A stretch of DNA of 64,000 nt from Eledone cirrhosa (GCA_964016885.1 OZ024743.1:360778001-360842000); one strand, 5' to 3'; positions 117 to 32,380 are shown, counted from the stretch's first letter. Notes: a model not told the origin generated them from the letters alone. A program made the numbers and translations.

Positions 117-193
117 ACGAAGGAGGTGTGGTAAGGAACCCGATGGACCGTAACGCACCAGGGTACTCAATACTTAGGGTAGTAGAGTGGGTA

Positions 194-287: not shown

Positions 288-310
288 ATATTTATAGGTA
301 GATAGATATT

Positions 311-342
311 ATAATAATAATAATAATAAAAATAATAATAAT
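311..342. repeat. (AAT)n tract, left boundary of the retrotransposon array
   Basis: Direct reading; abuts the 3' end of Tx1-like copy 1. Confidence 0.95.
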
Positions 343-583
343 GCTTTCTTTATTAACCAAAAGGATTTACATAAAGTAGACATTAAGGACAGTACAGGAC
401 AATACAGTCGGTACAAATGGGCATTACTGCGTGTAAAAAACAAGAAACAGAGGATGTAATAATGAAAAAATTCCCCAATAGGGGGGAGACCTCCGAGGGA
501 CATTCGTGGAGAAAGCCCATTAAAAAGCCACAGTGACCCTGACCACCAGGGCAAGTGCCCTCTCCCAGTTTTCCACCTTTAAT

Positions 584-3500
584 TTACAGACACATACTCA
601 GAGTAGGCCCATTTACTGGGGCCATTCTTGCCTCTCTCACCCATCTTTCAACAAAATGCTGGGAAGAGAACACTTCCCTTTCTACCCTGATTTTCCTTTT
701 TAAATGAAATCTGAAAAAGTTAATCAGGGCATCACCGAAGAGGTAAGTGCTCGTCTTCAGCCCTTTCAAACGTGTCCACCATACTATCTCTTTCGCCATG
801 GCCACCAGACAGATAAAAACTGCCTGCCCTTCCCGGCTAAAGGAAGAGGGCGGCGCAATCCTCACAATGGACTCAGCTGATAGCTGGATCCGTCCTACAC
901 GTGACAGCAGGTGTTCGACATAAACCCACAAGTCAGCAATGCTCGGACACTGGACGAGTGCGTGCAGGACGGTTTCGTCGCCATGCGCGCATCTCGGACA
1001 TGCCCGGCTGACGGCACCTCCATGCCTGTAGAGTTTATCCAGAACTGGCAAAGCTCCTCGGTAAAACTGCCAGACCAAGGATTTCTGGAAGTTGTCCATA
1101 GGCCCCGGCCCGAAATTTCTTCCGAAGTGATTGGCTAGTTGATTTTCGTCGACGCCTAGATTTTCTCCAAGTACGTCGTCGCTCTTCACTTCCACTAATC
1201 CTCTATAGAACGCCAAGGTGGAGTTTCCACCGATCACATTGCCCGATTGATCGAGGGCTGTGACCGCCTGAAGACATTCCAGTCTCCAAGCGCTCCCTCT
1301 CGGTCTTCGCTTGACCCAGGACTGCAGCTCCGTCAATGAAACGAGCTGGGGAAATATGTGTCTAGCAAACGGCGACCACACCTGATCACCGTCGGGGAAG
1401 AGGTGGAGATGTCGTAGCCTGAGCGCGTGTCTGCGCATCATCAGCCACGGCATTCCCAGCCCTCCACGTAGCGGGTGTTTACAGCGGATGGATCGCCTGA
1501 CCATCGGAGCGCGTCCCTTCCACAAAAAGTGAAAGAGCAAACGCTCCAGCGCAGTCAGGCGGGGCTTAGGACAAGGTACGACGGTCAGGCGGTAGTAGAT
1601 GACGGACGCGATATACGCGTTAGCCACCTCCGCTCGATCTTTCAGGGATAGCTTCCCTAGGCCCATTTATGGGTGAGAGAAGCTACCCTGCTCGTCACCT
1701 CGTCCCAGTTTTTTTTTTCCGTCTGGAGGTCCGGACCGAACCAGACCCCGAGCAATTTAACCGGTCCGTCCAGCGCCCGACGACGCTGTTGGACGGCATG
1801 GGCCTTCTTCTCCAGGTGCCTAGCTGCAGGCCCACTGACGTTTCCTGGTTGAACATTGCTCCTGTCACCGCTTCGTATTCTCTTAGTGTAGTTCCGATCG
1901 CCTTGATGTGTTTGGCGTTCGACACCACTACGGTGACATCGTCCGCATATGCTGACACGGATCTTCCGCATCCTATTTCGCGCGGGACCCCCTCAACGTC
2001 TCCAGTTTGTGCAGTAATGGCTCGAGAGTCAATACGTACAAGAGGGACGAGAGGGAACATGCTTGGCGGACCGAGCGCATGATGTTCAACGGTTCCGAAA
2101 GGTGACCGTTCACTCTCACCACAGAGCAGATGTCGCTGTGCATGGCAGCGATCCAGCCTCTGAAGACGGTCCCAAAGCCAGCCGCCCTCAGGACTGCCGC
2201 TAGGTAACGATGGTCGACCCTATTGAAAGCTTTCGACTGATCTAAATTTATCAACGACCCACCCATGCCAGGTTCCCTAGCTACCCTCTCTACGATGTAT
2301 ATCATGAGGTGGAGGTTGTCGTGGATGAATCTGTCGGGTATGGCGCATGTCTGCGCCTCTGCCACCAGACCATCAACGACAATCGCCAACCTCTTTGCTA
2401 GCACCCTGGCCAAAATCTTGAACTCTGTGTTTAGCAGAGTTATGGGCCTAAAATTATCTATGTTATCCCCCTTGTTCGGATACTTTTGTGCAGCGCCACA
2501 GCTCCTCGGCTCACAGAGCTGGGAATTGCCCCGTTCTGTTGCCAGTTGCAGTAGACGTCTACCAAGAGGCCTCCGAATAAGTCTGGCATCTGTACGTAAA
2601 GTTCATAGGGCAGACCATCCAAACCAGGCGATTTACTCCTTGTGCAGCTAGTCATTGCCTCCCGTACTTCAGCGGCTGTTATCGGCATTTCGCAACACTC
2701 CGCCTCAGTGGCCGAGAGCCGCGGCAGTCCGTCGAGGTAGACACTAAAGTCCATCCCTCGATCCGGCCCGCCGCTTCCCCCGGTCAACTGAGCGAAGTGT
2801 CGCTGAAAAGCTTCACACATTTTCCCGGGATCGAGTAGCATGTGCACGTCGTGGTCCACCAAAAACCGGATCGTGGCTTTGTTGCCACGACGCGCCTCCG
2901 CCACTCGGTCCCATTGAACCGCTTTCGTCCCCACGTGTCTGAGAGCACGCACCCTAGCTCTGACAACGCAGCCTTCGTGCTTTGCATTGAAGAATTGGTC
3001 AAGGGCCAATTTCGCCGCAAGTACTTCGGTCGCGATGCCTTTGCTAAGCGCCTCGTCTAATTTTCTAACTAATTCTCCCTCTGCTCTAATTTTCTCTATT
3101 GCTAAAGCCTTACTAAACCTAATGAACTCTATTCTAATTGCTCTTTTCAGAGCAAACCACCACTTGTTGTTGATGATGGCCCCCGTCAACGCCCGCTTAA
3201 CTAGTTCGCTAATCCGGTCTCTGTAGGCCTTGCGCGCTGGTAAGGACTTGTTTAGCTTCCAGTAGCCGGGTCCTCGTCTATGAAGCCTATCTAAGTCAAG
3301 CACACAGATCACGAATTTGTTATCCGTGTAGCTGACTATCTTAAATTGTGGACAGTCTATGCTAGACCTATCTATTTCTCTACAAAATACTCTATCTAGA
3401 TATGATCTGGATGACACTATGCGATTTGTCCAAGTCCACATTGGCACATTCGGGAAATACAATCGGTACCGGTCAGACAATTCAAAACGCCTGAGCAGGT

Positions 3501-4000
3501 TGGTGAGGCTCTTGCACCCTCCTCCCCTATCCGCTAATCCCACACTGTCCCAGCGTGCATCTAGGATCCCGTTCCAGTCGCCCACTAACACTAAAGAGCG
3601 GGACGTTCCAAGAAAGGTCTCTAGACGCCGGAAGAAATCAGGCCACCCTGCTCCTGTCGGAGCATAGACGGCCACTAGCCTGAAAGCTTGCCCGTCTCCG
3701 CTGGTCACGTCTAGCACCACCAACTTACCTTCTGGGTCCAGGAAGATGGCCCGTATGGCGAGATCCAAACCTCTCCGAAAAAGCACAGCAACTCCCCCCC
3801 CCCGACCCCCGAAGGCTGGGAGATGCGTACACATCGTATCCACCGAAGATCGGTGCGAAGGCCCGTGCTTCGGAGATTCTGGTTTCGCTGATGGCCACTA
3901 CATCTATGTTTAGTGACCTGAGGTCGTTGTGCAGGTGGCCCTGCTTCCATGACGACCCCAAGCCACGCGCATTTATGCTGCCTATCCTGAGTGAGGTCAT
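584..4000 (-). pseudogene. Tx1-like ORF2 (APE endonuclease, RT, C-terminal Cys/His motif), frameshifted
   Basis: ORF pieces 3725-4000, 2458-3843, 1973-2413, 1695-2060, 1657-1971 and 584-1666 carry SINARGL, VGDWN, SYLDRVF, KSPGLDGL, LDQSKAF, YADD and CPRC..ETVLHALVQC, collinear with the intact 1139-aa ORF. Confidence 0.93.
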
Positions 4001-4034
4001 GTTGAAATGGAGTGGAAAAAATGGGAAAGACCAC

Positions 4035-5982
4035 TTACCTTACTTCTCGTAGAGGAAGGATGCTTTGTCCATCCTTTTCACTGCTTGTGGCCTCCTCCGG
4101 AAGAATGTCCTTATACATCCTCCTGGAGAGTGTTTGTCGGAAGTCTCCGATGTCTTTGGGGAATTTTTGTTTTAGTGTCGTGTACGTTTTCTGTGTGATG
4201 CGTGTGATTTGTATGTGTGGAGGTGGTGTGAACTTTTGGGTTGTTGTGTAGTCTTTTTCTGTAATGCTGGTGTTGTGTTGTATGTAGTGTAATAATTGGT
4301 TGCTGTTCAAATTTAATGCTGTGTCGTGTGTATTGTTTTGGTTGTTTTGTTTTGTTTGCGTTTGTTGTGGGTTTGTTTCTGTTACGCTTTTTGGTGACTT
4401 TTGTGGTGTTGGTGATGGTGGTGTGGGGTTAATGATGGTGATAGTGTTGGTGTTTGTGGTGATGGGCTTGGTGATGCTGGTGTGGATGGTGACATATCTG
4501 TCCTAACTTTTTTCTTTGATAATTTATTTATTTCCCTCTGTATTTTGTTTTTGGAGGGGGAAGGAAGAGAATTTTTTTCTTTTTTGGTTTCATTTTTTCT
4601 CTTTTCCTGATACCGTTTCCCACTCCTCCTCGTCACAATCTGTCTCCAGTTGTGATAGGCCGGGGAGTGGAAAATCCTCCACAGGCGTTGGTTTTCGTTG
4701 TGGCGTGGTGGATGATGTAGGCGCTGGTGCTAGGTCTGGCGCGTTGGTTGGTGGTAGTGTTGGTTTTGGTTTTGCTACTGTTTCTGGGGTTGTTGCTGTT
4801 ACAGTTGCTTCTGTTGTTGCAGCTACAGATGTTGCTGCCATTTCTGCTGCAGGTGGTGGTGATGGTTGAGTCACTGGGGTGGGTAATAGAGGTGGCCTCA
4901 ACCTTTTAGCCTGAGGGCAGAAAGCCCTTAGGTGGGTTCCTTCACCACAAACGACACACCTAGGCCTTCTGCCCTCGACAATTACGGTGAGGTGGTTGCC
5001 GTCAGTGAGGTCTATTACCTCTGGGATCCTCCTCAATGCTTTTATGGTCCGCTTGGATCAGGAGCTCCATCCCAGATCCGGACTAGTTCTCATGCTTTTC
5101 TTTCGCTATTTCAATTACCTTGGTGTTGGCCTCGATGCCGGCGAGGACGGCAGACATTAGCCAGGGAATTTCGATGTCCGTTGGAACGTGGGTCACCCTG
5201 ATCTTCACAAGTCTCTGGCCACAATAGCTTGGGACGAGTGTGAAGTCGTCACTTCTTAATGGGGCCATGGAGTGTTCTCTGGCCTCCTGTTGTGTTTCAA
5301 AGAACACGTCTACGGTTCCATACTTCTGCCCACGTCTGATGTGGGGTTTTCTTGCCCACACATGTCCCAAAGCATTTTGGATTTAGGACTCGGATGCCCG
5401 TTCCACTCGGCGCGATTTTATGTTAATTGTCCGATAAGACACGGTGCATAGGCGCCGATGCTCCATTTTATTATTAGAGGCTGACCCTGTAACCATCCCT
5501 CTTTTCCATTTTTTTGGCTTCTTCTAATTCCTCCTGAGTTACCAGAAATGCTTCGCACTGTTTTGCTACTCTGGCAAAACTAAGGGTGGTTTTCTTAATT
5601 TCATTGTTGCTGTTGTTGTTATCGTTATTTTTGTTATTATTAATTTTAGTTTCAGTTGTGGTGTTGGTGGCGTCAGTGGTGTTCGGTGTGGAAGAGTACA
5701 TTTTGGTTGAATTCATTTCGATATCCCGAGTTAATTTATTTTTTCTTTTGTTTCTGTTGTCGCGGTGGTGGTGGGGGTGGGGGTTGTGACGGTGGTGGTG
5801 GTGGTGGCGGCTTTAACACCTGCAGTCATTGGTAATGACGGGAAATGAATATCTGCCTGAGACATATTTAAAATATTGCTACTGCTTATATTTTTAGTGT
5901 TGGCAAACATAGTAATATTTACAATGGTGGTGTCGGTGTGAGGTGTTAGTTTGTGAGGAAGGAGTGACTTTGAGTCATCCAT
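4035..5982 (-). pseudogene. Tx1-like ORF1 (RRM-like region + CCHC zinc knuckle), disrupted
   Basis: Fragments include KYGTVDVFFETQQEA and CVVCGEGTHLRAFC (CX2CX4HX4C), homologous to ORF1 at 14647-16746. Confidence 0.85.
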
Positions 5983-6196
5983 GATTTTTCAAATAAAAAT
6001 TTTTTGTTTGATAATTATAAAAGTTTAAATTTTGGGCTCAAGGCCTCAATCTTTTTGGGTGTCCTTTTCAGATAACAATGTATGTGCACTTATATACAGT
6101 TAACAATAACAATTTTCCATGAATGGCAATTTTAAATAACTGAAATAACAAACGTTTGCGGAGCTCACAATGATACGATTTACTACGTAGATCGCC

Positions 6197-6202
6197 AATA
6201 AC

Positions 6203-6248
<46 letters not shown>
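6197..6248. repeat. (AAT)n spacer at a head-to-head junction
   Basis: Direct reading. Confidence 0.95.
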
Positions 6249-7286
6249 GGGAAGAAGACGCACGAGGTGACGGAGGTCATGAAATCGCTCCCGTAAGTTT
6301 AGAATTTTTAACATATTTAAATCATTTGTGAAATAACAACTCTTAGTACAAATGCTACGTAAATCTTGAGCCCCAAAAAATTCGGACCCAAAATATATTG
6401 TTATAAGGCTCAAATATTCAAATATTCAACTTTGTATTGTACACTGTATATCCAAAAAAGAAAATGGCTATAAATGGAAGAAGAAACCCCCCTCCTCCTC
6501 TGTCTACACTATATAGAACAGCCAAACTCACCAACACAAGAAACTAGATACACCACCCACCCCATCACCTGTGTACACTAAACCACCACCGCTCACTACG
6601 GCCATCATTACAACCATTATCCCATCACCGCCGCCACCACCCCTTCACTCCTTCACTGCTACCTCCGCTACAGCACCATCACTACAGTAATACGGTCACA
6701 TCACCGCCACCACTGCCTCGGTATCGACATCACCACCACAACTGTCTCAGTATCGCTACCGCCGCCAGTCTCCCACTTCTTTCAGCTGGCTGCTGCCACC
6801 ACATTATAGAATCCCTGCTGCTAAAAAAGAGGAAGGCATCAAAATATATAGATAGACTCAAAAGAAAAAAGAAAAAACAAACAACAAAACCAAAGCAGCA
6901 CAGCAACAACAGCAAAAAACGAGAAAAACAAACAGAGAAAAACAAAAACAAAAAAAAAAAAACCCCCAAAACGTAAAGAAAATAAGAATGAAGAGAGAAG
7001 CAGGCGGACGGACAGAGAAGAGGGGGGAAAAACTAAAACTTAAAAAACAAAAACTAAGTCAGACATTCGAACACTACATTACAATGAAACTTATGCTTAT
7101 TCATTTTTGGGGCCCTTTCTGCCTGTGTGTTTGTTTGTTTATGTGTGTTCGTATACAGCGTGGTAATAATGCCACACAAGAGCCAAGTGGAATGGCGGAT
7201 CCACAGATGGATATGTAACCATACATTCGCCAATCCTCGATAAGAGTGTTTAAATATCGAACATAAACAGTTCGAATAACGGTGAA

Positions 7287-9340
7287 ATGGAGACTAGAAC
7301 GTCATGTGACAGACTCTCACCCAACAGGTGCCCCCTGGCTCAGCAGCAGGAACCTGACTGTCAACCAAATACTGCTGATGTTGGAGGAAGGAGAAGAAGG
7401 AAAGGGGCCAGAACCAACTGGACGAAAGAATTGAATAGAACTGTTATGCAATGTTACCTGAAAAGTAACCCCAAGGAGAGGGGCTACAGGAGACGGATGC
7501 ATAACATCTGGAACGAGATTGGTTTATTTAAATTAGATGAACAAAAATTGGCCGGGCAGGCTCGGGTAATAAGAACTAATGGATGGATAAGCGAGCTGGA
7601 ACTGGAGGAACTGAGCAGAGAGAATGGCTTGGAGATGGCGGGTGTAGTATGCTAGACAAGCGAGCCAGTGGGAAATGAAGGTGAAGAGGTCCTGAGAACG
7701 GAGGAACCAGCCGAAGCAGACAATGATCTGAATACTGAGATAAATAATACCTGGAACAGAGATACGGCCACTGAGGAGATGAATGCTGACGGGCTAGGAC
7801 AAGATTCGGTTGACATCCTAAATTTAGTGGTAGATGAATTGAACAATGATAGTGGGAGACCTATGAATCTAAGATTTGTAGACAGGAAAAAGTTAAAAGA
7901 AACAACAGCTAAGGTAAACAAAGTCATCCCATACCTTGAGGCGAGGAGCCTTCACCAGTGCAACAATATCCTCAAAGCAACAGCAAATACGGTGAGGAAA
8001 CTACTTGGTATAAAAGCGAGAGGAAACAACAGACAAGAAAGAGCAGAGCCGTGGTGGAAGAAGCGACTGAGTGGGCAAATCGGGGAAATGAGAAATGACA
8101 TAGGAAAGCTTGAGTCACTACTGAATGGGACACTAAAAAACATAGGCACTAAAAATAGACGGGAAATAAGATACAAAACTAGGAGGAAAAAGCTAAATAT
8201 TATCATAGAGGAACTGAAGCAACGCATTGTAGCAAAGAGTGCAAAAATCAGGCGATACGAGAACAGAGTCAGTCAGTATAAACATAACCGCATGTTCGAC
8301 AACAACCAGAAGATGCTGTTTGGACAGCTTGAGGGGAAAGAAAGAGGCAACGACTTGATCCCTGGGGCGGAGCAAACTAAAACATTCTGGAGAGGAATAT
8401 GGGAGCAGAATGTTAGACACAATGCCCAGGCAGGGTGGATTGAGACAGTGCGGAGGGAGATCGGTGAGCAGGCACAACAACAAACTGATTTGAGTATCAC
8501 AGTTGAAACTCTTAAGGGGCAGGCCAAAAAACTAACCAACTGGAAATCACCAGGCCCAGATAGTGTGCAGGGGTATTGGATTAAACATTTAACATCCCTC
8601 CACCCGAAGCTGACGGCCATGTTCAATGACTGCTTGGTGTCGGGTGAGGTGCCAGAGTGGTTGACAAAATGTACCACAGTTCTGATAATGAAAGACCGAA
8701 TCAAGGGTAATGATGTTACCAACTATAGACCTATCACATGTCTGTCCGTAATGTGGAAACTGTTGACGAGCATTGTGTCTGAGGAAATCTACCATCACCT
8801 CCACACAAACAACTTGTTACCGGACGAACAGAAAGGATGCCGAAAGAAGTCACGTGGTACAAAGGACCAGTTACATATTGATAAGATGGTAATGGGGAAT
8901 TGCAGGAGGAGACACACTGATCTTGCCATGGGATGGATAGACTACAGAAAGGCATTTGACATGGTGCCTCATTCCTGGATCACGAAAAGCCTGGAGATCT
9001 TCAGGGTGGCAGATAACATCAGACAGTTGCTAGGCAGGAGTATGGGGTCCTGGGAGACAGAGTTGACATCAACTGGAGTATCCTTGGGAAGCGTGAAGAT
9101 CAAGAGAGGTGTCTTCCAGGGAGATAGCCTGTCCCCTCTGTTGTTTGTCCTTGCCCTGATGCCCTTGACCATTATGCTGCGAAAACTGAGAGCAGGATAC
9201 AAGTTGGGAAGGGGAGAGCTTACCATCAATCACCTCCTCTTCATGGACGATCTTAAGCTCTTCGGGAAAAGTGAGAAGGAGTTGGATATTTATTTCAACA
9301 AACTTTCCAGTTAACTAACATCAATGACTGAGACTCAAAG

Positions 9341-9394
<54 letters not shown>

Positions 9395-10802
9395 GTGAGA
9401 AGGAGTTGGATGTGCTTGTTGACACTGTCCGTATTTTCAGCAGTGATATATGTATGCAGTTGGTATTGGTAAATGTGGAGTCATTGTGATGAAGAGGGGT
9501 AGGTTGAGCAGAAGTAACGGGATCCAGATACCAACAGGTGAGATGATAAAGGAAATTGACTCTGAGGAAGGATACAAGTATTTGGGCGTTCTGGAGGCTG
9601 ATGGCATAAAGAACAAAAAAATGAAGGAATTGTTAAGAACTGAATACATTCGGAGAGTAAGGAGCGTATTGAAGTCACATCTGAACAGCAGAAATGCCAT
9701 AAGCGCAGTAAATTCCCGAGCTGTGTCTATTATTAGGTACAGTGCGGGAATTCTGAGATGGAATGTTGCTGAACAAAAAGAAATGGATAGGAAGACTAGG
9801 AAGCTATTGACTATCTACAACATGTTCCACAAGAGGAGTGATGTCGATAGACTCTACCTAAGGAGATCTGAGGGTGGAAGAGGTCTTATCAGCATAGAGG
9901 ACTGTGTTCAGATGGAGAAAAACAACCTATACAAATACGTGACCTATAGTAAGGAGCCAATGCTCAGAACTGTACTGAAGGAGGGGACAGTAGGCCAGGG
10001 GATGTCCAAGGAGGAAATAACATCAAGGAGGAAGAGCAGCCTTAAGGGAAAATCCCTTCATAGTACCTTCTTTGAGAAAACTGAATTTAGAGATCCACAG
10101 ACATGGAACTGGTTGAGAAGAGGAGACCTCAAAAAGGCTACAGAAGGAATGCTAATGGCTGCGCAGGAGCAGGCCCTCAAAACGAAGTGGTTGAAGCACC
10201 ATATCTACAAGGAGGAGGCTAGCCCACTGTGCAGGATCTGTGGATTGAGAGAGGAGACTGTGGCTCACATTGTGTCCGAGTGTAAACACCTAGCCCAGAC
10301 CCACTATAAGGGCTGGAGACACGATGTGATGGGCAGGGTGATCCACTGGCACCTGTGCAAAGTAAACAATTTACCACATTCTGAGAAATGGTATGAGCAT
10401 AGGCCAGAGGCGGTGATGGAGAACAATCAGGTGAAGGTGCTGTGGGATTTTAGGATACAGACGGACAAAAAACTGGAACACAATAGACCTGACCTGGTGG
10501 TTGTGGACAAAGAAAAAAGATCGTGTCTGATTGTGGATGTGGCCTGCCCGTTCGACACGAGAGTGCAAGAGAAGGAGAGGGAGAAAATTAACCGATACCA
10601 GGACCTAAAGTGGGAGGTGAAAAGGATTTGGAACTGCCATGAAGTCAAAGTGATCCCGATTGTCATAGGCGCACTGGGGACTATCTCCAAAAGTTTCCAG
10701 GGATGGTTAAAGAAAATCGGCCCCTTCACGCTTTTTGGAACGCTTCAAAAGGCATGCTTGCTTGGAACAGCAAGAACCCTCCGATACGTCCTGAATATCT
10801 GA
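7287..10802 (+). pseudogene. Family A ORF with premature TAG (7653-7655) and nested insertion
   Basis: CAG>TAG relative to copy 2. A 104-bp insert plus 20-bp duplication after FMDDLKL shifts the frame. Confidence 0.92.
9288..9391 (+). mobile_element. Extremely 5'-truncated family-A-like insertion (53 nt of 3' UTR + AAT tail) with 20-bp TSD
   Basis: ACTTTCCAGTTAACTAACATCAATGACTGAGACTCAAAG matches the family A 3' UTR. AAAGTGAGAAGGAGTTGGAT occurs at 9268-9287 and 9392-9411 but only once in copies 2 and 3. Confidence 0.92.
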
Positions 10803-10876
10803 GGCTGCAGGTAGTGGCTTGATATTCAATCCAACGGACTTTCCAGTTAACCAACATCAATGACTGAGATTCAAAG

Positions 10877-10885
10877 AATAACAAC

Positions 10886-10927
<42 letters not shown>
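10877..10927. repeat. (AAT)n spacer at a tail-to-tail junction
   Basis: Direct reading. Confidence 0.95.
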
Positions 10928-10929
<2 letters not shown>

Positions 10930-11191
10930 TTTCTTTATTAACCACAAGGGTTTACATAAAGTAGACATTAAGGACAGTGCAGGACAATGCAGGACGGTAC
11001 AAATGGGCATTTCTGCGTGTAAAAAAAAACAAAAATAGAGGATGTAACAAAAATAACAATGAAAATAACAATGAAAAATTCCCCAATAGGGGGGAGACTT
11101 CGGAGGAACATTTGTGGAGAAAGCCCAGTAAAAAGCCACAATGACCCTGACCACCAAGGCAAGTGCCCTCTCCCAGTTTTCCACCTTTAGT

Positions 11192-14100
11192 TTACAGATA
11201 TATACTCAGAGTCGGCCCATTCACTCGGGCCATTCTTGCTTCTCTCACGCATCTTTCAACAAAATGCTGGGAAGAGAGCACTTCCTTCTCTACTCTGATT
11301 TTCCTTTTCAAATGAAATTTGAAAAAGTCAATCAGAGCATCACCGAAGAGGTAAGTGCTCGTCTTCAGCCCTTTCAAACGTGTCCACCATACTATCTCTT
11401 TCGCCATGGCCACCAGACAGATAAAAACTGCCTGCCCTTCCCGGCTAAAGGAGGAGGGCGGGGCAATCCTCACGATAGACTCAGATGATAGCTGGATCCG
11501 TCCTAAACGCGACAGCAGGTGTTCGACATAAACCCACAAGTCAGCAATTTTCGGGCACTGGACGAGTGCGTGCAGGACGGTTTCGTCGCCCTGCGCGCAT
11601 CTCGGACATGCCCGGCTGACGGCACCTCCATGCCTGTAGAGTTTATCCCGAACTGGCAAGGCTCCTCGGTAGCACTGCCAGGCCAGAGATTTCTGGAAGT
11701 TGTCCATAGGCCCTGGCCCGAAGGTTCTTCCGAAGAGATTGGCTAGTTGATTTTCGTCGACGCCTAGAGTTTCCCCAAGTACGTCGTCGCTCTTCCCCTC
11801 CACTAATCCTCTATAGAACGCCGAGGTGGAGTTTCCACCGATCACATTGCCCGATTGGTCGAGGGCTGTGAGCGCCTGAAGACATTCCAGTCTCCAGGCG
11901 CTCCCTCTCGGTCTTCGCTTGACCCAGGACTGCAGCTCCGTCAAGGAAACGAGCTGGGGAAAAACGCGTCTAGCAAACGGCGACCACACCTGATCACCGT
12001 CGAGGAAGAGGTGGAGATGTCGTAGCCTGAGCGCGTGCCTGCGCATCATCAGCCACGGCATGCCCAGCCCTCCACGTAGCGGGTGTTGACAACAGATGGA
12101 CCGCCTGACCATCGGAGCACGTCCCTTCCACAAAAAGCGAAAGAGCAAACGCTCCAGCGCAGTCAGGCGAGGCTTAGGACAAGGTACGACGGTTAGGCGG
12201 TAGCAGATGACAGACGCGATGTACGCGTTAGCCACCTCCGCTCGACCTTTCAGGGATAGCTTCCTCTCCGCCCATTTCTGGGTGAGAGAAGCCACCCTGC
12301 TCGTCACCTCGTCCCAGTTTTTGTCCGTCTGGAGGTCCGGACCGAACCAGACCCCTAGCAATTTAACCGGTCCGTCCGTCCAGCGCCCGACGACGCTGTT
12401 GGACGGCATGGACCTGCCTCTCCAGGTGCCGAGCTGCAGGCCCACTGACTTTTCCTGGTTGATCATTGCTCCTGTCACCGCTTCGTATTCTCTTAGTGTA
12501 GTGCCGATCGCCTCGATGTGTTTGGCGTTCGACACCACTACGGTGACATCGTCCGCATATGCTGACACGGATCTTCCGCATCCTAGTTCGCGCGGGACTC
12601 CCCTCAACGTCTCCAGTTTGTGCAGTAATGGCTCGAGAGTCAATACGTACAAGAGGGACGAGAGGGGACATCCTTGGCGGACCGAGCGCATGATGTTGAA
12701 CGGTTCCGACAGGTGACCGTTCACTCTCACCACAGAGCAGATGTCGCTGTGCATGGCAGCGATCCAGCCTCTGAAGACGGGCCCAAAGCCAGCCGCCCTC
12801 AGGACTGCCGCTAGGTAACGATGGTCGACCCTATCGAAAGCTTTCGACTGATCTAAATTGATCAAGGACCCACCCGTGCCAGGTTCCCTAGCTACCCTCT
12901 CTACGATGTATCGCATGAGGTGGAGGTTGTCGTGGATGGATCTGTCGGGAATGGCGCATGTCTGCGCCTCTCCCACCAGACCACCAACGACAAGCGCCAA
13001 CCTCTTTGCTAGCACCTTGGCCAAAATCTTAAACTCTGTGTTTAGCAGAGTTATGGGCCGGAAATTGTCTATGTTATCCCCCTTGTTCGGATCCTTTCTC
13101 AGCAGTGCCACCGCTCCTCGGCTCACAGAACTGGGAATTCTCCCGTTCTGTTGCCAGTTGCAGTAGACGTCCGCCAAGAGGCCTCCGAACAAGTCTGGCA
13201 TCTGTACGTAAAGTTCATAGGGCAGACCATCCAAACCAGGCGATTTACCCCTTGTGCAGCCAGTCATTGCCTCCCTTACTTCAGCGGCTGTTATCGGCTT
13301 TTCGCAACACTTCGCCTCAGTGGCCGAGAGCCGCGGCAGTCCGTCGAGGTAGACACTAAAGTCCATCCCTCTACCCGGCCCCCCGCTGCCCCCGAACAGC
13401 TGAGCGAAGTGTCGCTGAAAAGCTTCACACATTTGCCCGGGATCGAGTAGCATGCGCCCGTCGTGGTCCACCAAAGACCGGATCGTGGCTTTGTTGCCAC
13501 GACGCGCCTCCGCCACTCGGGCCCATTGAACGGCTTTCGTCCCCTCGTGTCTGAGAGCACGCACCCTAGCTCTGACAACGCAGCCTTCGTGCTTTGCATT
13601 GAAGAATTGGTCAAGGGCCAATTTCGCCGCAAGCACGTCGGTCGCAATGCCTTTGCTAAGCGCCTCGTCTAATTTTCTAACTAGTTCTCCCTCTGCTCTA
13701 TTTTTCTCTATTGCTAAAGCCTTACTAAACCTAATCGATTCTATTCTAATCGCTCTTTTCAGAGCAAACCACCACTTGTTGTTGACGATGGCCCCCGTCA
13801 ACGCCCGCTTAACTAGTTCGCTAATCCGGTCTCTGTAGGCCTTGCGCGCTGGTAAGGACGCGTTTAGCTTCCAGTAGCCGGGTCCTCGTCTATGAAGCCT
13901 ATCTAAGTCAAGCACACAGATCACGAATTTGTGGTCCGTGTAGCTGACTATCTTGAATTGTGGACAGCCTATGCTAGACCTATCTATTTCCCTACAAAAT
14001 ACTCTATCTAGATATGATCTGGATGACCCTATGCGGTTTGTCCAAGTCCACATTGGCACATTCGGGAAATCCAATCGGTACCTGTCAGACAGTTCAAAAC

Positions 14101-14611: not shown

Positions 14612-14646
14612 GTTTAAAATAGAGTGGAAAAGATGGGAAAGACCAC

Positions 14647-16959: not shown

Positions 16960-16997
<38 letters not shown>

Positions 16998-17007
16998 TAA
17001 TAATAAT
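16960..17007. repeat. (AAT)n spacer at a head-to-head junction
   Basis: Direct reading. Confidence 0.93.
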
Positions 17008-20000: not shown

Positions 20001-21332
20001 GATAAAGGAAATTGACTCTGAGGAAGGATACAAGTATTTGGGCGTTCTGGAGGCTGATGGCATAAAGAACAAAAAAATGAAGGAATTGTTAAGAACTGAA
20101 TACATTCGGAGAGTAAGGAGCGTATTGAAGTCACATCTGAACAGCAGAAATGCCATAAGCGCAGTAAATTCCCGAGCTGTGTCTATTATTAGGTACAGTG
20201 CGGGAATTCTGAGATGGAATGTTGCTGAACAAAAAGAAATGGATAGGAAGACTAGGAAGCTATTGACTATCTACAACATGTTCCACAAGAGGAGTGATGT
20301 CGATAGACTCTACCTAAGGAGATCTGAGGGTGGAAGAGGTCTTATCAGCATAGAGGACTGTGTTCAGATGGAGAAAAACAACCTATACAAATACGTGACC
20401 TATAGTAAGGAGCCAATGCTCAGAGCTGTACTGAAGGAGGGGACAGTAGGCCAGGGGATATCCAAGGAGGAAATAACATCAAGGAGGAAGAGCAGCCTTA
20501 AGGGAAAATCCCTTCATAGTACCTTCTTTGAGAAAACTGAATTTAGAGATCCACAGACATGGAACTGGTTGAGAAGAGGAGACCTCAAAAAGGCTACAGA
20601 AGGAATGCTAATGGCTGCGCAGGAGCAGGCCCTCAAAACGAAGTGGTTGAAGCACCATATCTACAAGGAGGAGGCTAGCCCACTGTGCAGGATCTGTGGA
20701 GAGAGAGAGGAGACTGTGGCACACATTGTGTCCGAGTGTAAACACCTAGCCCAGACCCACTACAAGGGCTGGAGACACGATGTGATGGGCAGGGTGATCC
20801 ACTGGCACCTGTGCAAAGTAAACAATCTACCGCATTCTGAGAAATGGTATGAGCATAGGCCAGAGGCGGTGATGGAGAACAGTCAGGTGAAGGTGCTGTG
20901 GGATTTTAGGATACAGACGGACAAAAAACTGGAACACAATAGACCTGACCTGGTGGTTGTGGACAAAGAAAAAAGATCGTGCCTGATTGTGGATGTGGCC
21001 TGCCCGTTCGACACGAGAGTGCAAGAGAAGGAGAGGGAGAAAATTAACCGATACCAGGACCTAAAGTGGGAGGTGAAAAGGATTTGGAACTGCCATGAAG
21101 TCAAAGTGATCCCGATTGTCATAGACGCACTGGGGACTATCTCCAAAGGTTTCCAGGGATGGTTAAAGAAAATCGGCCCCTTCACGCTTTTTGGAACGCT
21201 TCAAAAGGCATGCTTGCTTGGAACGGCAAGAACCCTCCGATACGTCCTGAATATCTGAAGCTGCAGGTAGTGGCTTGATATTCAATCCAACGGACTTTCC
21301 AGTTAACCAACATCAATGACTGAGATTCAAGG
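17008..21332 (+). mobile_element. R4/Dong-type family A copy 2 (ORF intact, leader 5'-truncated by ~200 bp)
   Basis: Begins at the A-run preceding AAATGGCTATAAATGG of the leader; ends GAGATTCAAGG then (AAT)n. Confidence 0.94.
17866..21258 (+). CDS. R4/Dong-type protein, 1130 aa: Myb-like N-terminus, RT, CCHC knuckle, restriction-like endonuclease
   Basis: NWTKELN..MQCY; KSPGPDG, NYRPITCL, IDYRKAFD, GIFQGDSLSPLLF, FMDDLKL, YKYLG; CRICGEREETVAHIVSEC; RHD, RPDLVV..VDVACP..EKINRYQDL. Confidence 0.96.
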   Translation: METRTSCDRLSPNRCPLAQQQEPDCQPNTADVGGRRRRKGARTNWTKELNRTVMQCYLKSNPKERGYRRRMHNIWNEIGLFKLDEQKLAGQARVIRTNGWISELELEELSRENGLEMAGVVCQTSEPAGNEGEEVLRTEEPPEADNDLNTEINNTWNRDTATEEMNADGLGQDSVDILNLVVDELNNDSGRPMNLRFVDRKKLKETTAKVNKVIPYLEARSLHQCNNILKATANTVRKLLGIKARGNNRQERAELWWKKRLSGQIGEMRNDIGKLESLLKGTLKNIGTKNRLEIKYKTRSKKLNIIIEELKQRIVAKSAKIRRYENRVSQYKQNRMFDNNQKMLFGQLEGKERGNDLIPGAEQAKTFWRGIWEQDVRHNAQAGWIETVQREIGEQAQQQTDLSITVETLKGQAKKLTNWKSPGPDGMQGYWIKHLTSLHPKLTAMFNDCLVSGEVPEWLTKGTTVLIMKDRIKGNNVTNYRPITCLPVMWKLLTSIVSEEVCHHLHTNNLLPDEQKGCRKKSRGTKDQLLIDKMVMGNCRRRHTDLAMGWIDYRKAFDMVPHSWITKSLEIFRVADNIRQLLGRSMGSWETELTSTGVSLGSVKIKRGIFQGDSLSPLLFVLALMPLTIMLRKVRAGYKLGRGELTINHLLFMDDLKLFGKSEKELDVLVDTVRIFSSDICMQFGIGKCGVIVMRRGRLSRSNGIQIPTGEMIKEIDSEEGYKYLGVLEADGIKNKKMKELLRTEYIRRVRSVLKSHLNSRNAISAVNSRAVSIIRYSAGILRWNVAEQKEMDRKTRKLLTIYNMFHKRSDVDRLYLRRSEGGRGLISIEDCVQMEKNNLYKYVTYSKEPMLRAVLKEGTVGQGISKEEITSRRKSSLKGKSLHSTFFEKTEFRDPQTWNWLRRGDLKKATEGMLMAAQEQALKTKWLKHHIYKEEASPLCRICGEREETVAHIVSECKHLAQTHYKGWRHDVMGRVIHWHLCKVNNLPHSEKWYEHRPEAVMENSQVKVLWDFRIQTDKKLEHNRPDLVVVDKEKRSCLIVDVACPFDTRVQEKEREKINRYQDLKWEVKRIWNCHEVKVIPIVIDALGTISKGFQGWLKKIGPFTLFGTLQKACLLGTARTLRYVLNI

Positions 21333-21344
21333 AATAACAATAAC

Positions 21345-21416
<72 letters not shown>

Positions 21417-21473
21417 AAGAAGAAGAAGAAGAAGAAGAAGAAGAAGAAGAAGAAGAAGAAGAAGAAGAAGAAG
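21333..21473. repeat. Compound microsatellite (AAT)n(AAG)n
   Basis: Direct reading. Confidence 0.95.
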
Positions 21474-22385
21474 AACTGCTACAGAAACTGGCTAAGAAAT
21501 GGCAAGAAAAGCCTATGTATGGAAAATACCCAGAGCGAGCTAACAATCCTGATGTGGACAAAACTTTAACCCATCAGTGGGTGGCATCCTGTGGACTGCA
21601 ATCGGAGACTGAAGGACTGATTATATCAGCACAAGATCAGTGTCTGCCAACAAAAAATTACCAAGCCAACATAATAAAAAATGGATGCAGCCCATTATGC
21701 CGTGTATGCAAAAAACAACCAGAGACCATTGACCATATAATTTCAATGTGCAGTCCTATAGCTCCAACCGAATACCTAAACAGGCATGACAGAGCTGCAC
21801 AATACATACATTGGATAATGTGTAAGCATTTTGACCTGCCCCATCAAAAGAATTGGTGGGAGCATCAACCACCTCCCATACTTGAGAAAGATCACATCTC
21901 AATCTTGTGGAACTATAGCATCCAAACAGACCGAAAAATAGATGCAAATAGACCTGATATAATATTGAAGGACTTTCAAAGGAGGGTATGCCTGCTAACT
22001 GATATGTCTGTTCCAATAGACAAGAATGTATCTATAAAAACATTTTAAAAATTGAGCAAGTATAAGGACCTGGAGATAGAAATTGGAAAAATGTGGAAAT
22101 TGAGAACTAAAACAATACCAGTGGTTGTAGGCGCTCTGGGAATGATACCTAAGGGGTCTAATGATTACTTATCGCAAATCCCAGAAAACCCGCGTATAGG
22201 AGAAATACAAAAGATAGTACTAATGGGAACTGCCCATATACTAAGGAAGATTCTGTCAATATAAGTACATCACAAGTCTAAACACTAAAGATGCATGTGT
22301 GAGTATGTATGTTCTTTCTTGAACATGGCGGACCTTGTTGTCTCTTGAGGTCACTGGTTGTGAACATAAAGCAAGATAAATGCAA
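21471..22385 (+). mobile_element. R4/Dong-type family B, 5'-truncated copy (zinc knuckle + RLE region), disrupted
   Basis: Near-identical to ~26423-27356, with GAA>TAA at 22046-22048 and a ~20-bp deletion in the 3' UTR. The 5' junction has AAGAA microhomology with (AAG)n. Confidence 0.93.
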
Positions 22386-23270
22386 CTGTAATAATAATAA
22401 AAATAATAATAATAATAATAAGTTTTTGATTTTTAACATATTTAAATCAATTGTGAAATAACAAGTCTTTTTACAAATGATGCATAAACCACCGAATCAA
22501 GTCTCATAAAATTTCGGAGCCATATTATATTGTTATATCGCTCAAATATTCAATTTTGTATTCAAACAAGAAAATGGTTATAAATGGAAGAAAACACCCT
22601 CTGTCTACACTATATAGAACAGTCAAATAACAGCAATTTCACCAACACCAGAAACTTGATACACCACCTACCCCATCACACTAAATATAACAGCCAGATA
22701 ACGGCAATTTCACCACCACCACCACCAAACCCAGCATAATAATAATAATAATTACTATTATTATTTTCTCAAGTTTTAACAAAATGTTTAATTCCAATTT
22801 TACGTGAATATGTCAACACAATATATATTAAACATACGCGACACAAACGCATAGATACTACAGATCAAACAAAACTAGTTTATTTAACACATATATTAAA
22901 CATACGCGACACAAACTCATAGATACTACATATCACAAAACACTGTAACGACAACGCCACCGCCGCCACCACTCCATCCATCATTGCTACCACTATCCCA
23001 TCACCGCCACCGCCACACCTTCATTGCTACCACCACTATTTCCCTGTTAACTTAAGAAAGTGGGAAGGTGGCGGTATCACTAGACAAGGGAGAGGCTAGC
23101 AAAAGATATAATAGATTGACTTAGTGACACGGCCACCGGCCAAACGTCATCAACTATGGCACTGCAGGCTCCCCCTTCCTCACCAACAATATAAAAAGCC
23201 CCAGCACCACCACCGACATAGCCAACAACAATAACAGGCAACTTCAGCAAAAAGTATATTATATTATTGT

Positions 23271-27216: not shown

Positions 27217-27542
27217 GTACATCACAAGTCTAAACACTAAGGATGCATGTGTGAATATGTGTGTTCTTTCTTGAACATGGCGGACCTTGTTGTCTCTTGA
27301 GGTCACTGGTTGTGACTTGGTGATAACTCGTATAAACATAAAGCAAGATAAATGCAAATAATAATAATAATAATAAGGGAAGAAGACGCACGAGGTGACG
27401 GAGGTCATGAAATCGCTCCCGTAAGTTTTGAATTTTTAACATATTTAAATCATTTGTGAAATAACAACTCTTAGTACAAATGCTACGTAAAGCACCCGGC
27501 TTGAGCCCCAAAAAAATTCGGACCCAAAATATATTGTTATAA

Positions 27543-28180
27543 GGCTCAAATATTCAAATATTCAACTTTGTATTGTACACTGTATATCCCCCAAAAAATG
27601 GCTATAAATGGAAGAAGAAGAACCCCCCCCCCTCCTCTCCTCTGGCTACACTATATAGGACAGCTAAACTCACCAACACCAGAAACTAGATACACCACCC
27701 ACCCCATCATCTGTGTACACTAAACACAACAGCATTTTCACCTTCACCGCCACCGCTCACTACGGCCATCATTGCCACCACTATCCCATCACCGCCGCCG
27801 CCACCCCTTGACTCCTTCACTGCTGCTGCCACCGCTACAGCACCATCACTACAGTAATACGGCTCAAATATTCAAATATTCAACTTTGTATTGTACACTG
27901 TATGTCCAAAAAAAAATAAAATGGCTATAAATGGAAGAAGAAGAACCCCCCCCCCTCCTCTCCTCTGGCTACACTATATAGGACAGCGAAACTCACCAAC
28001 ACCAGAAACTAGATACACCACCCACCCCATCATCTGTGTACACTAAATACAACAGCATTTTCACCTTCACCGCCACCGCTCACTACGGCCATCATTACCA
28101 CTATCCCATCACCGCCGCCACCACCCCTTGACTCCTTCACTGCTGCTGCCACCGCTACAGCACCATCACTACAGTAATAC
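27543..28180 (+). repeat. Tandem duplication (~320 bp x2) in the family A leader
   Basis: 27543-27860 and 27861-28180 both run GGCTCAAATATTCAAATATT...ACAGTAATAC; copy 1 has one unit. Confidence 0.9.
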
Positions 28181-28755
28181 GGTCGCATCACCGCCACCAC
28201 TGCCTCGGTATCGACATCACCACCACCACTGTCTCAGTATCGCCAACGCCGCCAGTCTCTGCTGGCTGCCACTTCCACATTATAGAATTCCTACTACTAA
28301 CAAAGAGGAAGGCATCAAAATATATAGATAGACTCAAAAGAAAAAAGAAAAAACAAACAACAAAAGCAGCACAGCAACAACAGCAAAAAACGAGAAAAAC
28401 AAACAGAGAAAAACAAAAACAAAAAAAGACACCCCCAAAACGTAAAGAAAATAAGAATGAAGAGAGAAGCAGGCGGACGGACAGAGAAGAGGGGGGAAAA
28501 AGTAAAACTTAAAAAACAAAAACTAAGTCAGACATTCGAATACTACATTACAATGAAACTTATGCTTATTCATTTTTGGGGCCCTTTCTGCCCGTGTGTT
28601 TGTTTGTTTATGTGTGTCCGTATACAGCGTGGTGATAATGCCACACAAGGGCCAAGTGGGATGGCGGATCCACAGAAGGCTATGTAAACATACATTCGCC
28701 AATCCTCGATAAGAGTGTTTAAATATCGAACATAAACAGTTCGAATAACGGTGAA

Positions 28756-31700
28756 ATGGAGACTAGAACGTCATGTGACAGACTCTCACCCAACAGGTGC
28801 CCCCTGGCTCAGCAGCAGGAACCTGACTGTCAACCAAATACTGCTGATGTTGGAGGAAGAAGAAGAAGGAAAGGGGCCAGAACCAACTGGACGAAAGAAT
28901 TGAATAGAACTGTTATGCAATGCTACCTGAAAAGTAACCCCAAGGAGAGGGGCTACAGGAGACGGATGCATAACATCTGGAACGAGATTGGTTTATTTAA
29001 ATTAGATGAACAAAAATTGGCCGGGCAGGCTCGGGTAATAAGAACTAATGGGTGGATAAGCGAGCTGGAACTGGAGGAACTGAGCAGAGAGAATGGCTTG
29101 GGATGGCGGGTGTAGTATGCCAGACAAGCGAGCCGGCGGGAAATGAAGGTGAGGAGGTCCTGAGAACGGAGGAACCACCCGTAGCAGACAATGATCTGAA
29201 TACTGAGATAAATAATACCTGGAACAGAGATACGGCCACTGAGGAGATGAATGCTGACGGGCTAGGACAAGATTCGGTTGACATCCTAAATTTAGTGGTA
29301 GATGAGTTGAACAATGATAGTGGGAGACCTATGAACCTAAGATTTGTAGACAGGAAAAAGTTAAAAGAAACAACAGCTAAGGTAAACAAAGTCATCCCAT
29401 ACCTTGAGGCGAGGAGTCTTCACCAGTGCAACAATATCCTCAAAGCAACAGCAAATACGGTGAGGAAACTACTTGGTATAAAAGCGAGAGGAAACAACAG
29501 ACAAGAAAGAGCAGAGCCGTGGTGGAGGAAGCGACTGAGTGGGCAAATCGAGGAAATGAGAAATGACATAGGAAAGCTTGAGTCACTACTGAATGGGACA
29601 CTAAAAAACATAGGCACTAAAAATAGACTGGAAATAAAATACAAAACTAGGAGTAAAAAGCTAAATATTATCATAGAGGAATTGAAGCAACGCATTGTAG
29701 CAAAGAGTGCCAAAATCAGGCGATACGAGAACAGAGTCAGTCAGTATAAACAGAACCGCATGTTCGACAACAACCAGAAGATGCTGTTTGGACAGCTTGA
29801 GGGGAAAGAAAGAGGCAACGACTTGATCCCTGGGGCGGAACAAGCTAAAACATTCTGGAGAGGAATATGGGAGCAGGATGCTAGACACAATGCCCAGGCA
29901 GGGTGGATTGAGACAGTACAGAGGGAGATCGGTGAGCAGGCACAGCAACAGACTGATTTGAGTATCACAGTTGAAACTCTTAAGGGGCAAGCCAAAAAAC
30001 TAACCAACTGGAAATCACCAGGCCCAGATGGTGTGCAGGGGTATTGGATTAAACATTTAACATCCCTCCACCCGAAGCTGACGGCCATGTTCAATGACTG
30101 CTTGGTGTCGGGTGAGGTGCCAGAGTGGTTGACAAAAGGTACCACAGTTCTGATAATGAAAGACCGAATCAAGGGTAATGATGTTACCAACTATAGACCT
30201 ATCACATGTCTGCCCGTAATGTGGAAACTGTTGACGAGCATTGTGTCTGAGGAAATCTACCATCACCTCCACACAAACAACTTGTTGCCGGACGAACAGA
30301 AAGGATGCCGAAAGAAGTCACGTGGTACAAAGGACCAGTTGCTTATTGATAAGATGGTAATGGGGAATTGCAGGAGGAGACACACTGATCTTGCCATGGG
30401 ATGGATAGACTACAGAAAAGCATTTGACATGGTGCCTCATTCCTGGATCACCAAAAGCCTGGAGATCTTCAGGGTGGCAGATAACATCAGACAGTTGCTG
30501 GGCAGGAGTATGGGGTCCTGGGAGACAGAGTTGACATCAACTGGAGTATCCTTGGGAAGCGTGAAGATCAAGAGAGGTATCTTCCAGGGAGATAGCCTGT
30601 CCCCTCTGTTGTTTGTCCTTGCCCTGATGCCCTTGACCATTATGCTGCGAAAAGTGAGAGCAGGATACAAGTTGGGAAGGGGAGAGCTTACCATCAATCA
30701 CCTCCTCTTCATGGACGATCTTAAGCTCTTCGGGAAAAGTGAGAAGGAGTTGGATGTGCTTGTTGACACTGTCCGTATTTTCAGCAGTGAAATATTTATG
30801 CAGTTTGGTATTGGTAAATGTGGAGTCATTGTGATGAGGAGGGGTAGGTTGAGCAGAAGTAACGGGATCCAGATACCAACAGGTGAGATGATAAAGGAAA
30901 TTGACTCTGAGGAAGGATACAAGTATTTGGGCGTTCTGGAGGCTGATGGCATAAAGAACAAAAAAATGAAGGAATTGTTAAGAACTGAATACATTCGGAG
31001 AGTAAGGAGCGTATTGAAGTCACATCTGAACAGCAGAAATGCCATAAGCGCAGTAAATTCCCGAGCTGTGTCTATTATTAGGTACAGTGCGGGAATTCTG
31101 AGATGGAATGTTGCTGAACAAAAAGAAATGGATAGGAAGACTAGGAAGCTATTGACTATCTACACCATGTTCCACAAGAGGAGTGATGTCGATAGACTCT
31201 ACCTAAGGAGATCTGAGGGTGGAAGAGGTCTTATCAGCATAGAGGACTGTGTTCAGATGGAGAAAAACAACCTATACAAATACGTGACCTATAGTAAGGA
31301 GCCAATGCTCAGAGCTGTACTGAAGGAGGGGACAGTAGGCCAGGGGATATCGAAGGAGGAAATAACATCAAGGAGGAAGAGCAGCCTTAAGGGAAAATCC
31401 CTTCATAGTACCTTCTTTGAGAAAACTGAATTTAGAGATCCACAGACATGGAACTGGTTGAGAAGAGGAGACCTCAAAAAGGCTACAGAAGGAATGCTAA
31501 TGGCTGCGCAGGAGCAGGCCCTCAAAACGAAGTGGTTGAAGCACCATATCTACAAGGAGGAGGCTAGCCCACTGTGCAGGATCTGTGGAGAGAGAGAGGA
31601 GACTGTGGCTCACATTGTGTCCGAGTGTAAACACCTAGCCCAGACCCACTATAAGGGCTGGAGACACGATGTGATGGGCAGGGTGATCCACTGGCACCTG

Positions 31701-32147
31701 TGCAAAGTAAACAATCTACCACATTCTGAGAAATGGTATGAGCATAGGCCAGAGGCGGTGATGGAGAACAGTCAGGTGAAGGTGCTGTGGGATTTTAGGA
31801 TACAGACGGACAAAAAACTGGAACACAATAGACCTGACCTGGTGGTTGTGGACAAAGAAAAAGGATCGTGCCTGATTGTGGATGTGGCCTGCCCGTTCGA
31901 CACGAGAGTGCAAGAGAAGGAGAGGGAGAAAATTAACCGATACCAGGACCTAAAGTGGGAGGTGAAAAGGATTTGGAACTGCCATGAAGTCAAAGTGATC
32001 CCGATTGTCATAGGCGCACTGGGGACTATCTCCAAAGGTTTCCAGGGATGGTTAAAGAAAATCGGCCCCTTCACGCTTTTTGGAACGCTTCAAAAGGCAT
32101 GCTTGCTTGGAACGGCAAGAACCCTCCGATACGTCCTGAATATCTGA
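28756..32147 (+). pseudogene. Family A ORF with a single 1-bp deletion near 29101 (real or sequencing error)
   Basis: GGCTTGGGATGG versus GGCTTGGAGATGG in copies 1 and 2; the rest is open for >1000 codons. Confidence 0.88.
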
Positions 32148-32221
32148 GGCTGCAGGTAGTGGCTTGATATTCAATCCAACGGACTTTCTAGTTAACCAAC
32201 ATCAATGACTGAGATTCAAGG

Positions 32222-32233
32222 AATAACAATAAC

Positions 32234-32314
<81 letters not shown>

Positions 32315-32338
32315 AAGAAGAAGAAGAAGAAGAAGAAG

Positions 32339-32380
<42 letters not shown>
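32222..32380. repeat. Compound microsatellite (AAT)n(AAG)n(AAC)n, right boundary of the array
   Basis: Direct reading. Confidence 0.95.

Follow-up and report, generated by a model that had tools for sequence, protein, structure and literature searches.

How did eight stretches of retrotransposon come to lie end to end in a single AAT microsatellite, with one endonuclease class facing one way and a second class facing the other? The locus occupies positions 311..32380 of a 64,000-nucleotide stretch of Eledone cirrhosa DNA (GCA_964016885.1 OZ024743.1:360778001-360842000), here called the window. Open reading frame (ORF) calling, tandem-repeat detection, self-comparison, sequence inspection and Pfam gave the order Tx1(-), A(+), Tx1(-), A(+), truncated B(+), B(+), A(+), in which Tx1 is a Tx1-like long interspersed nuclear element (LINE) encoding an apurinic/apyrimidinic-type endonuclease (APE), and A and B are two Dong-like families encoding a restriction-like endonuclease (RLE). 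AAT tracts fill every junction and no host DNA lies between the elements. An earlier note on this DNA had described seven elements in one AAT tract; its order, strands and junctions stand, but the segments number eight, because the first A copy is interrupted at 9288-9391 and its parts differ in their identity to other A copies. The probable explanation, in our view, is a pile-up in (AAT)n of one Tx1-like APE lineage and two Dong-like RLE families of opposite polarity, with new insertions often completed on a neighbouring copy.

We counted exact matches to element 5′ or 3′ end sequences genome-wide together with the adjacent AAT or ATT units, and we classified junctions, deduplicated by sequence, at 198 loci, the first 200 minus two that are the window itself; these were the best-scoring matches out of 417-1,226 candidates per search. 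As background, 0.2% of 36 bp segments of host DNA hold at least four in-phase AAT units on a given strand. The 5′ ends provide the decisive test, because a 3′ tail could be made by the element itself. The young Tx1 5′ end has 2,413 exact matches, of which 2,330 directly abut (AAT)3 in one phase; in an older Tx1 subfamily AAT adjoins 28 of 29 5′ ends, again in this phase. The Tx1 3′ end was found after (AAT)4 3,076 times and after (ATT)4 once. The 5′ start shared by A and B follows (AAT)3 in 1,486 matches (approximately 1,050 sites, as forward matches are partly double-counted; 530 are on the reverse strand) and (ATT)3 in four, all of which have a longer AAT tract just upstream.

The sampled junctions gave the same picture. 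Tx1 was joined to ATT at 69/70 3′ ends, 66/66 full 5′ ends and 8/11 truncated 5′ ends (one of the remainder opposite, two with neither repeat), while A and B were joined to AAT at 66/66 and 41/42 3′ ends, respectively, and at all 14 full 5′ ends; no RLE end in the sample lay in ATT. Truncated RLE copies are informative because their 5′ flank cannot be the copy's own tail, and these begin after AAT in 46/52 cases for A and 28/34 for B, and never after ATT, in agreement with RLE targeting of AAT. The opposite orientations described in the earlier note for this one array therefore extend across the genome, and Tx1 copies are neither devoid of a 5′ microsatellite nor randomly oriented, the outcome which that note had named as fatal to its reading. 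AAT targeting with fixed polarity is, with very little doubt, a genome-wide rule, and mixed Tx1/RLE arrays recur throughout the genome.

We consider it highly improbable that the window array is a mosaic created during assembly or the product of local DNA duplication. Comparison of four sequencing runs with positions 120-9500, and of four with 10860-17030, yielded nothing beyond short contigs or 150-base reads and nothing that spans the array, as such an artefact would allow; however, the copies are unlike one another in subfamily, truncation point and age, the internal A junction at 9288 is unique, and the same junction grammar is present at thousands of sites.

The polarity could in principle arise in two ways. 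Endonucleases may choose the site, or they may have no specificity at all, with pairing of (AAT)n/(ATT)n tails to breaks in AAT repeats setting the orientation. The second possibility is compatible with the AAC-interrupted AAT tail that A copies inherit, from which A RNA likely carries target-like sequence, with the help that SART1 receives from RNA-target pairing (PMC7265360), and with the fact that target and tail are indistinguishable at 3′ ends. It is nevertheless very unlikely, given that the Tx1 phase is fixed at both ends (C/ATTATT in 58/58 complete 3′ ends and ATTATT/G in 64/66 5′ ends, the stroke marking the junction), that a third RLE family appears to prefer ACAT, and that an endonuclease swap changed TRAS/SART specificity (PMC7265360). 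We favour sites set by the enzymes because of this fixed phase and the apparent, separate ACAT preference.

From the orientations and junctions, the APE and RLE elements very probably nick opposite strands. In target-primed reverse transcription (TPRT) the primer comes from the strand that lies opposite the element, so the AAT strand would prime Tx1 and the ATT strand would prime A and B. The Tx1 endonuclease would cut the AAT strand at the TpA step (AAT^AAT), the RLE would cut the ATT strand, and each insertion would leave target on both sides.

Precedents exist for every ingredient of this arrangement. Dong targets the TAA microsatellite (PMC3812793, where the targets of Kibi, Koshi, Waldo and Mino are also given), and its 5′ junction has TAA repeats upstream on the sense strand, in the primer (PMC3774820). 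Like Dong elements of the R4 clade (Bombyx Dong, DongAg and DongBg), A and B occupy TAA repeats, the sense strand being the one that reads TAA, and have a single ORF with reverse transcriptase (RT) and RLE; unlike them, A and B, which are 35% identical in protein, have 5′ untranslated regions (UTRs) that are approximately 79% alike. Bombyx Dong self-cleaves at its 5′ end through a ribozyme resembling that of hepatitis delta virus (HDV; PMC3774820), whereas the A and B 5′ ends gave neither an Rfam match near threshold nor a match to a strict home-made HDV-like descriptor, both of which diverged ribozymes would escape. Among the LINE groups recently active in Octopus vulgaris, Dong-R4 is the largest, with 5 families and 1,129 insertions (PMC13282606), and Dong-R4 and L1-Tx1 are both reported in Octopus in accounts whose consulted portions make no mention of targets (PMC13282606, PMC9115989).

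Tx1-clade APE elements, namely Kibi, Koshi and crocodilian families, are specific for (TC)n, (TTC)n and (TTCC)n/(TTTC)n, a target preference being recognised when more than 20% of flanks agree (PMC4494074), a proportion to be set beside 2,330/2,413 here. The Eledone Tx1 is likewise an APE element on a microsatellite, but its target, (ATT)n, is not named in the portion of the PMC4494074 text that was compared, is held in common with RLE elements, and has been colonised by a family that has approximately 2,400 young 5′ ends and forms pure arrays with as many as 21 copies. Entry of two families into one repeat in opposite directions is known from TRAS1 and SART1 of Bombyx, where the nick made by the TRAS1 endonuclease falls between T and A (PMC7265360). 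In that pair both elements are of the APE type and the repeats are telomeric, unlike the combination of APE and RLE on an interstitial microsatellite described here. TRAS1 and SART1 both belong to the R1 clade.

How arrays grow beyond independent hits on a shared target can be followed in head-to-tail arrays made of Tx1 alone, of which there are 10 among 88 full copies (retained from 115 after removal of those with at least 45 differences or incomplete cover); the largest have 21 and 13 copies. Array members are different haplotypes that also occur on other contigs, and neighbours are identical in 1/49 pairs. Many linkers carry a variant repeat unit, a marker, which recurs along the array: all 13 5′ flanks of the C11 array start (AAT)6GAT and stop at 33, 36, 42 or 44 bp, 13/20 linkers of the 21-copy C4 array start (AAT)6AAC, and 5/5 linkers of a C2 array start (AAT)14AACAAC. 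Longer flanks are repeated as well, including one of 571 bp with an A fragment (2/2) and, in a C1 pair, one of approximately 870 bp with a B fragment, which is identical between elements differing at 59 sites over their whole length. Marked linkers always begin at the 5′ junction, and the repeated flank ranges from 24 to approximately 870 bp; intercopy distance varies from 18 to approximately 890 bp, and no fixed-length duplication was encountered in these arrays. A staggered nick in pure repeat is disfavoured because the markers start at a fixed unit count. Spread of markers by RNA to other loci was considered and rejected, as each marker is confined to a single locus among the 88 copies, bar one flank common to C6 and C3.

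Sequence similarity between neighbours is polar. In the 5′ kb neighbours differ at 2.69 positions, compared with 4.68 after shuffling (none of 2,000 shuffles was so low; permutation P<0.0005), while in the 3′ kb the corresponding values are 3.71 and 3.48. The per-array median ratio is 0.31 at the 5′ end and 1.05 at the 3′ end, with the 5′ ratio below 1 in 9/10 arrays (Wilcoxon p=0.006). Rare variants common to neighbours occur in the 5′ third of 10/49 pairs, as against 2 and 1 pairs in the other thirds, and an identical 5′ tract exceeding 1 kb is found in 14/26 pairs with marked linkers, 5/23 others (classed by hand, p=0.04) and 9% of comparisons between loci. A copy on C2 combines a body haplotype found on other contigs with the 5′ end of its neighbours.

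Judging from these junctions, we think it fairly probable that a new copy often completes its insertion on a neighbouring resident. TPRT would begin from RNA of any source copy, and the cDNA would pair with the adjacent resident and copy its 5′ end and flank as far as the nick. This homology-guided completion would duplicate the whole interval from the resident's 5′ junction to the new nick (24 to approximately 870 bp). The self-extending landing pad of the earlier note, in which each insertion regenerates target for the next, is incomplete in that growth also appears to involve copying of the resident's flank.

Tandem R1 elements of Drosophila offer the closest comparison, in that new copies land in the duplicated target next to the 5′ end of the resident, and in models the second strand is primed by cDNA-target pairing (PMC2718515, 10.1101/158386). 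Tx1 units, too, arose as separate insertions with duplicated target between them, as indicated by the rarity of identical neighbours and the repetition of marked linkers; the R1 linker, however, is a fixed duplication of 14 bp or 33 nt, whereas the Tx1 flank is variable in length, is copied from the resident's 5′ junction and separates neighbours that share 5′ variants. In cultured cells, L1 cDNA reportedly annealed to endogenous L1 and produced chimeras and duplications, rarely and at scattered sites (Gilbert et al. 2005); completion on a homologous resident would be the same here, but appears recurrent and array-building. PMC4640811 and 10.1101/2024.08.27.596794 were also compared.

An alternative with the same targeting and polarity is that Tx1 arrays grow by unequal crossover, accompanied by polar cDNA conversion, in which TPRT initiated next to the 3′ end of a resident replaces its 3′ part and no copy is added. 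It predicts the same polar similarity, prefix-shortened linkers and local 5′ ends, and it gains from the presence of certain identical or nearly identical neighbours (at most 2 differences in 4/49 pairs), from the growth of R1 arrays by unequal exchange (10.1101/158386) and from the duplication of whole arrays as DNA, three loci sharing one identical Tx1/B junction. We nonetheless regard it as unlikely, for it requires conversion of nearly every unit after duplication, the first duplication in the C2 array would need a crossover within 6-8 bp of homology, and the C1 pair combines its long identical flank with 59 differences between the elements.

Several observations weigh against completion on the neighbour as the general route, or limit its reach. 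No 5′-polar sharing was found in six older adjacent C1 pairs from the genome-wide list, whose 5′ kb differences number 8, 14, 13, 8, 6 and 46 compared with 8.3 between loci, and only one of the six repeats a marked flank; this pair differs 25 bp from the 5′ end. The 49-pair set is drawn from the best-scoring young copies, with two arrays supplying 32 of the pairs, and tandem units of 6 kb that are 99.7% identical may be assembled wrongly. In the C4 array 7/20 linkers are pure AAT, from which it follows that ordinary independent insertion also occurs. The window's own array gives no direct view of flank copying, and at one locus (L070) a Tx1 fragment is oppositely oriented. This last case, the sole polarity exception sampled, belongs to a region (L070/L165; G000:C3:85.33-85.35 Mb) where a pair of A copies point towards one another, with an old truncated Tx1 between them, and the repeat strand switches from AAT to ATT.

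With these points in the balance, the full proposal, that an ATT-specific Tx1 uses, from the opposite strand, the target of Dong-type elements and that satellite-like arrays form through routine cDNA invasion of the resident with copying of up to approximately 0.9 kb of flank, including elements of other families, is put forward tentatively, at slightly less than even chances. If it is true, the arrays are a natural record of second-strand priming, and swaps of 5′ modules between subfamilies and between RLE families are explained. Of seven candidate pairs of RLE tandems two were examined: one repeats a marked linker, and the other, a B-A pair, has pure linkers. At L333 (G000:C1:95268500-95278100) a tandem has a repeated marked linker that ends in a 107 bp mini A, which joins approximately 90 bp from the 5′ end to 20 bp from the 3′ end.

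The literature searched, to which Repbase, Dfam, Kojima and Fujiwara 2004, the original Dong paper and figure 3 and the supplements of PMC4494074 (which hold more Tx1 targets) did not belong, contained no ATT-specific Tx1, no Tx1/Dong pairing and no flank copying of variable extent in the portions consulted, and on balance we expect that the ATT-specific Tx1 is truly undescribed. What is added here is Tx1 arrays of non-identical neighbours with locus-specific repeated linkers and 5′-polar similarity. Second-strand priming of LINE insertion is still called murky (PMC2881922), and marked linkers between non-identical neighbours amount to hundreds of natural events that show the second-strand template. 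APE and RLE elements on opposite strands of one three-letter repeat form a simple pair for the study of target and strand choice, the Tx1 family likely generates structural variation and is a candidate tool for site-specific delivery, and the arrays illustrate one path from retrotransposon to satellite.

The names Tx1 and Dong/R4 are inferred from protein resemblance. Tx1 ORF2 matches PF03372, PF00078 and PF13966 (APE, RT and C-terminal zinc finger, respectively) and retains the catalytic motifs ETR, GDWN, YTDH and YADD. Its best relative of solved structure is human L1 ORF2p (E 4e-52, compared with 1e-21 for R2), and the sole family-named match among 10 is 'Transposon TX1 149 kDa protein' at 32%. 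The 699 aa ORF1 has a C-x2-C-x4-H-x4-C knuckle and no Pfam match; a separate ORF1 with a CCHC knuckle is a feature of the Tx1 clade. The two window copies are approximately 95% identical in ORF2 DNA, with approximately 50% protein identity in ORF1 and unlike 5′ UTRs. Of 36 Tx1 loci picked by their 3′ end, 33 hold a full-length copy, 29 of these with an intact ORF2 and 25 with both ORFs intact. The family is likely active, because of these intact copies and the abundance of young 5′ ends. In a sequencing run of another organism, the young Tx1 was covered over its full length and the older one (from a comparison of 4100-6196 with 14700-16959) mainly in ORF2.

Both A and B have a single ORF in which RT is followed by CCHC, RHD and PD..D..K nuclease motifs, with no APE found by Pfam or motif search. 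Their coding DNA cannot be aligned, and the likeness of their 5′ UTRs (window 6249-6500, 22420-22700 and 27377-27620) covers the first 240 bases and further patches. Homologues of A are nearly all unnamed, certain lepidopteran proteins reaching 33-38%. RLE 5′ ends are mostly truncated, often joined by microhomology. The shared A/B 5′ UTR and the swapped Tx1 ORF1 suggest that 5′ modules have been exchanged, as would be favoured if insertions were completed on a neighbour. The third RLE LINE is a decayed copy at window 46123-50146 (+) with (ACAT)n on either side; ACAT-like repeats terminate most of its 15 other matches and ACAT precedes several truncated 5′ ends, which suggests an ACAT-preferring RLE family.

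Table 1. Features of the array at window positions 311..32380, and the two largest pure Tx1 arrays (genome coordinates).
Feature	Position	Strand	Basis
Left target tract, (AAT)5 AAA (AAT)4	311..342	+	sequence, repeats, self-comparison
Tx1-like LINE copy 1, decayed, full length, second subfamily (own 5′ UTR and ORF1)	343..6196	-	Pfam, comparison
Tx1 copy 1 ORF2, APE-RT-zinc finger, frames broken (lies within copy 1)	343..6196	-	Pfam
Junction (AAT)17	6197..6248	+	tandem repeats
RLE family A 5′ part, older variant, complete 5′ start, ORF stops within RT	6249..9287	+	sequence, Pfam, comparison
A 3′ UTR piece, 53 bp, plus (AAT)17, flanked by 20 bp direct repeat	9288..9391	+	sequence; genome search
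RLE family A 3′ part, younger variant; CCHC, RHD, PD..D nuclease motifs	9392..10876	+	self-comparison
Junction (AAT)17; initial units AAC-interrupted, belonging to A tail	10877..10927	+	tandem repeats
Tx1-like LINE copy 2, young, full length (6,032 bp); AATAAA right before 3′ end, poly(A) absent	10928..16959	-	ORFs, Pfam
Tx1 copy 2 ORF1, 699 aa, CCHC knuckle	16746-14647	-	ORF calling
Tx1 copy 2 ORF2, 1,139 aa, APE, RT and zinc finger	14611-11192	-	ORF calling, Pfam
(AAT)11 AAA (AAT)4 and A run	16960..17021	+	tandem repeats, sequence
RLE family A copy, ~210 bp missing at 5′ end; single intact ORF 17833-21258	17022..21332	+	ORFs, Pfam
Junction (AAT)14 (AAG)29; B fragment begins in AAG microhomology	21333..21475	+	tandem repeats, sequence
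RLE family B, 5′-truncated, final 0.9 kb; 97.8% to full B	21469..22388	+	self-comparison
Junction (AAT)3 AAA (AAT)6	22389..22421	+	tandem repeats, self-comparison
RLE family B, nearly full length (~47 bp short at 5′ end); intact ORF 23566-27216, 1,216 aa	22420..27356	+	ORFs, Pfam
Junction (AAT)6	27357..27376	+	tandem repeats
RLE family A, full length; 323 bp tandem duplication in 5′ UTR at 27539-28182; one ORF break near 29.05 kb	27377..32221	+	ORFs, repeats
Right target tract, (AAT)17 (AAG)18 (AAC)13, host DNA thereafter	32222..32380	+	repeats, sequence
Pure Tx1 array, 21 copies, ~127 kb, satellite-like	G000:C4:357938510-358059756
Pure Tx1 array, 13 copies, ~79 kb, satellite-like	C11:49979116-50051919

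Within the window array (Table 1), the insert that splits the first A copy is bordered by a 20 bp duplication (9268-9287 repeated at 9392-9411), and the left and right parts of this copy are 97-99% and 98-100% identical to other A copies, respectively. The arrangement represents either a mini-copy inserted at a non-AAT site with a 20 bp target duplication, or two A copies in succession, the older with a deletion and the younger truncated. A distinct A family carrying an internal deletion was rejected, since the 9288 junction was found once genome-wide. Another truncated A (locus L075) begins at most 1-2 bases from the position of the 9288 breakpoint.

The single AAG-extended junction of the earlier note is present at 21333..21475, and AAG is found a second time in the terminal (AAT)(AAG)(AAC) tract. 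These two AAG tracts, and AAA(AAT)4 at 328 and 16993, may be target duplications. For AAG as a long target duplication made by the B fragment, four other RLE 5′ ends preceded by AAG were found, none with a later AAG tract in the DNA examined. Two further candidates were rejected: (AAT)5..(ATT)3 at 22738-22765 belongs to the 5′ UTR of B itself, is also present in locus L199 and is not an insertion, and the A copies at 17022-21332 and 27377-32221 are not local duplicates, the former being 99.5-99.7% identical to dispersed copies and approximately 99% to the latter.

Short repeats, likely a short interspersed nuclear element (SINE), occur at window 35420-35610, 35960-, 52830-53110 and 63070-63260; they end in ATT and carry CCTTGTG, or a near motif, like that of the Tx1 3′ end. 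A piece of the 3′ end of this likely SINE sits within B's 5′ UTR near 23270-23330. An inverted repeat with arms of approximately 30 bases lies immediately left of the array (window 180-275), and an inverted duplication of approximately 420 bp, 90% identical, spans window 41626-42613.

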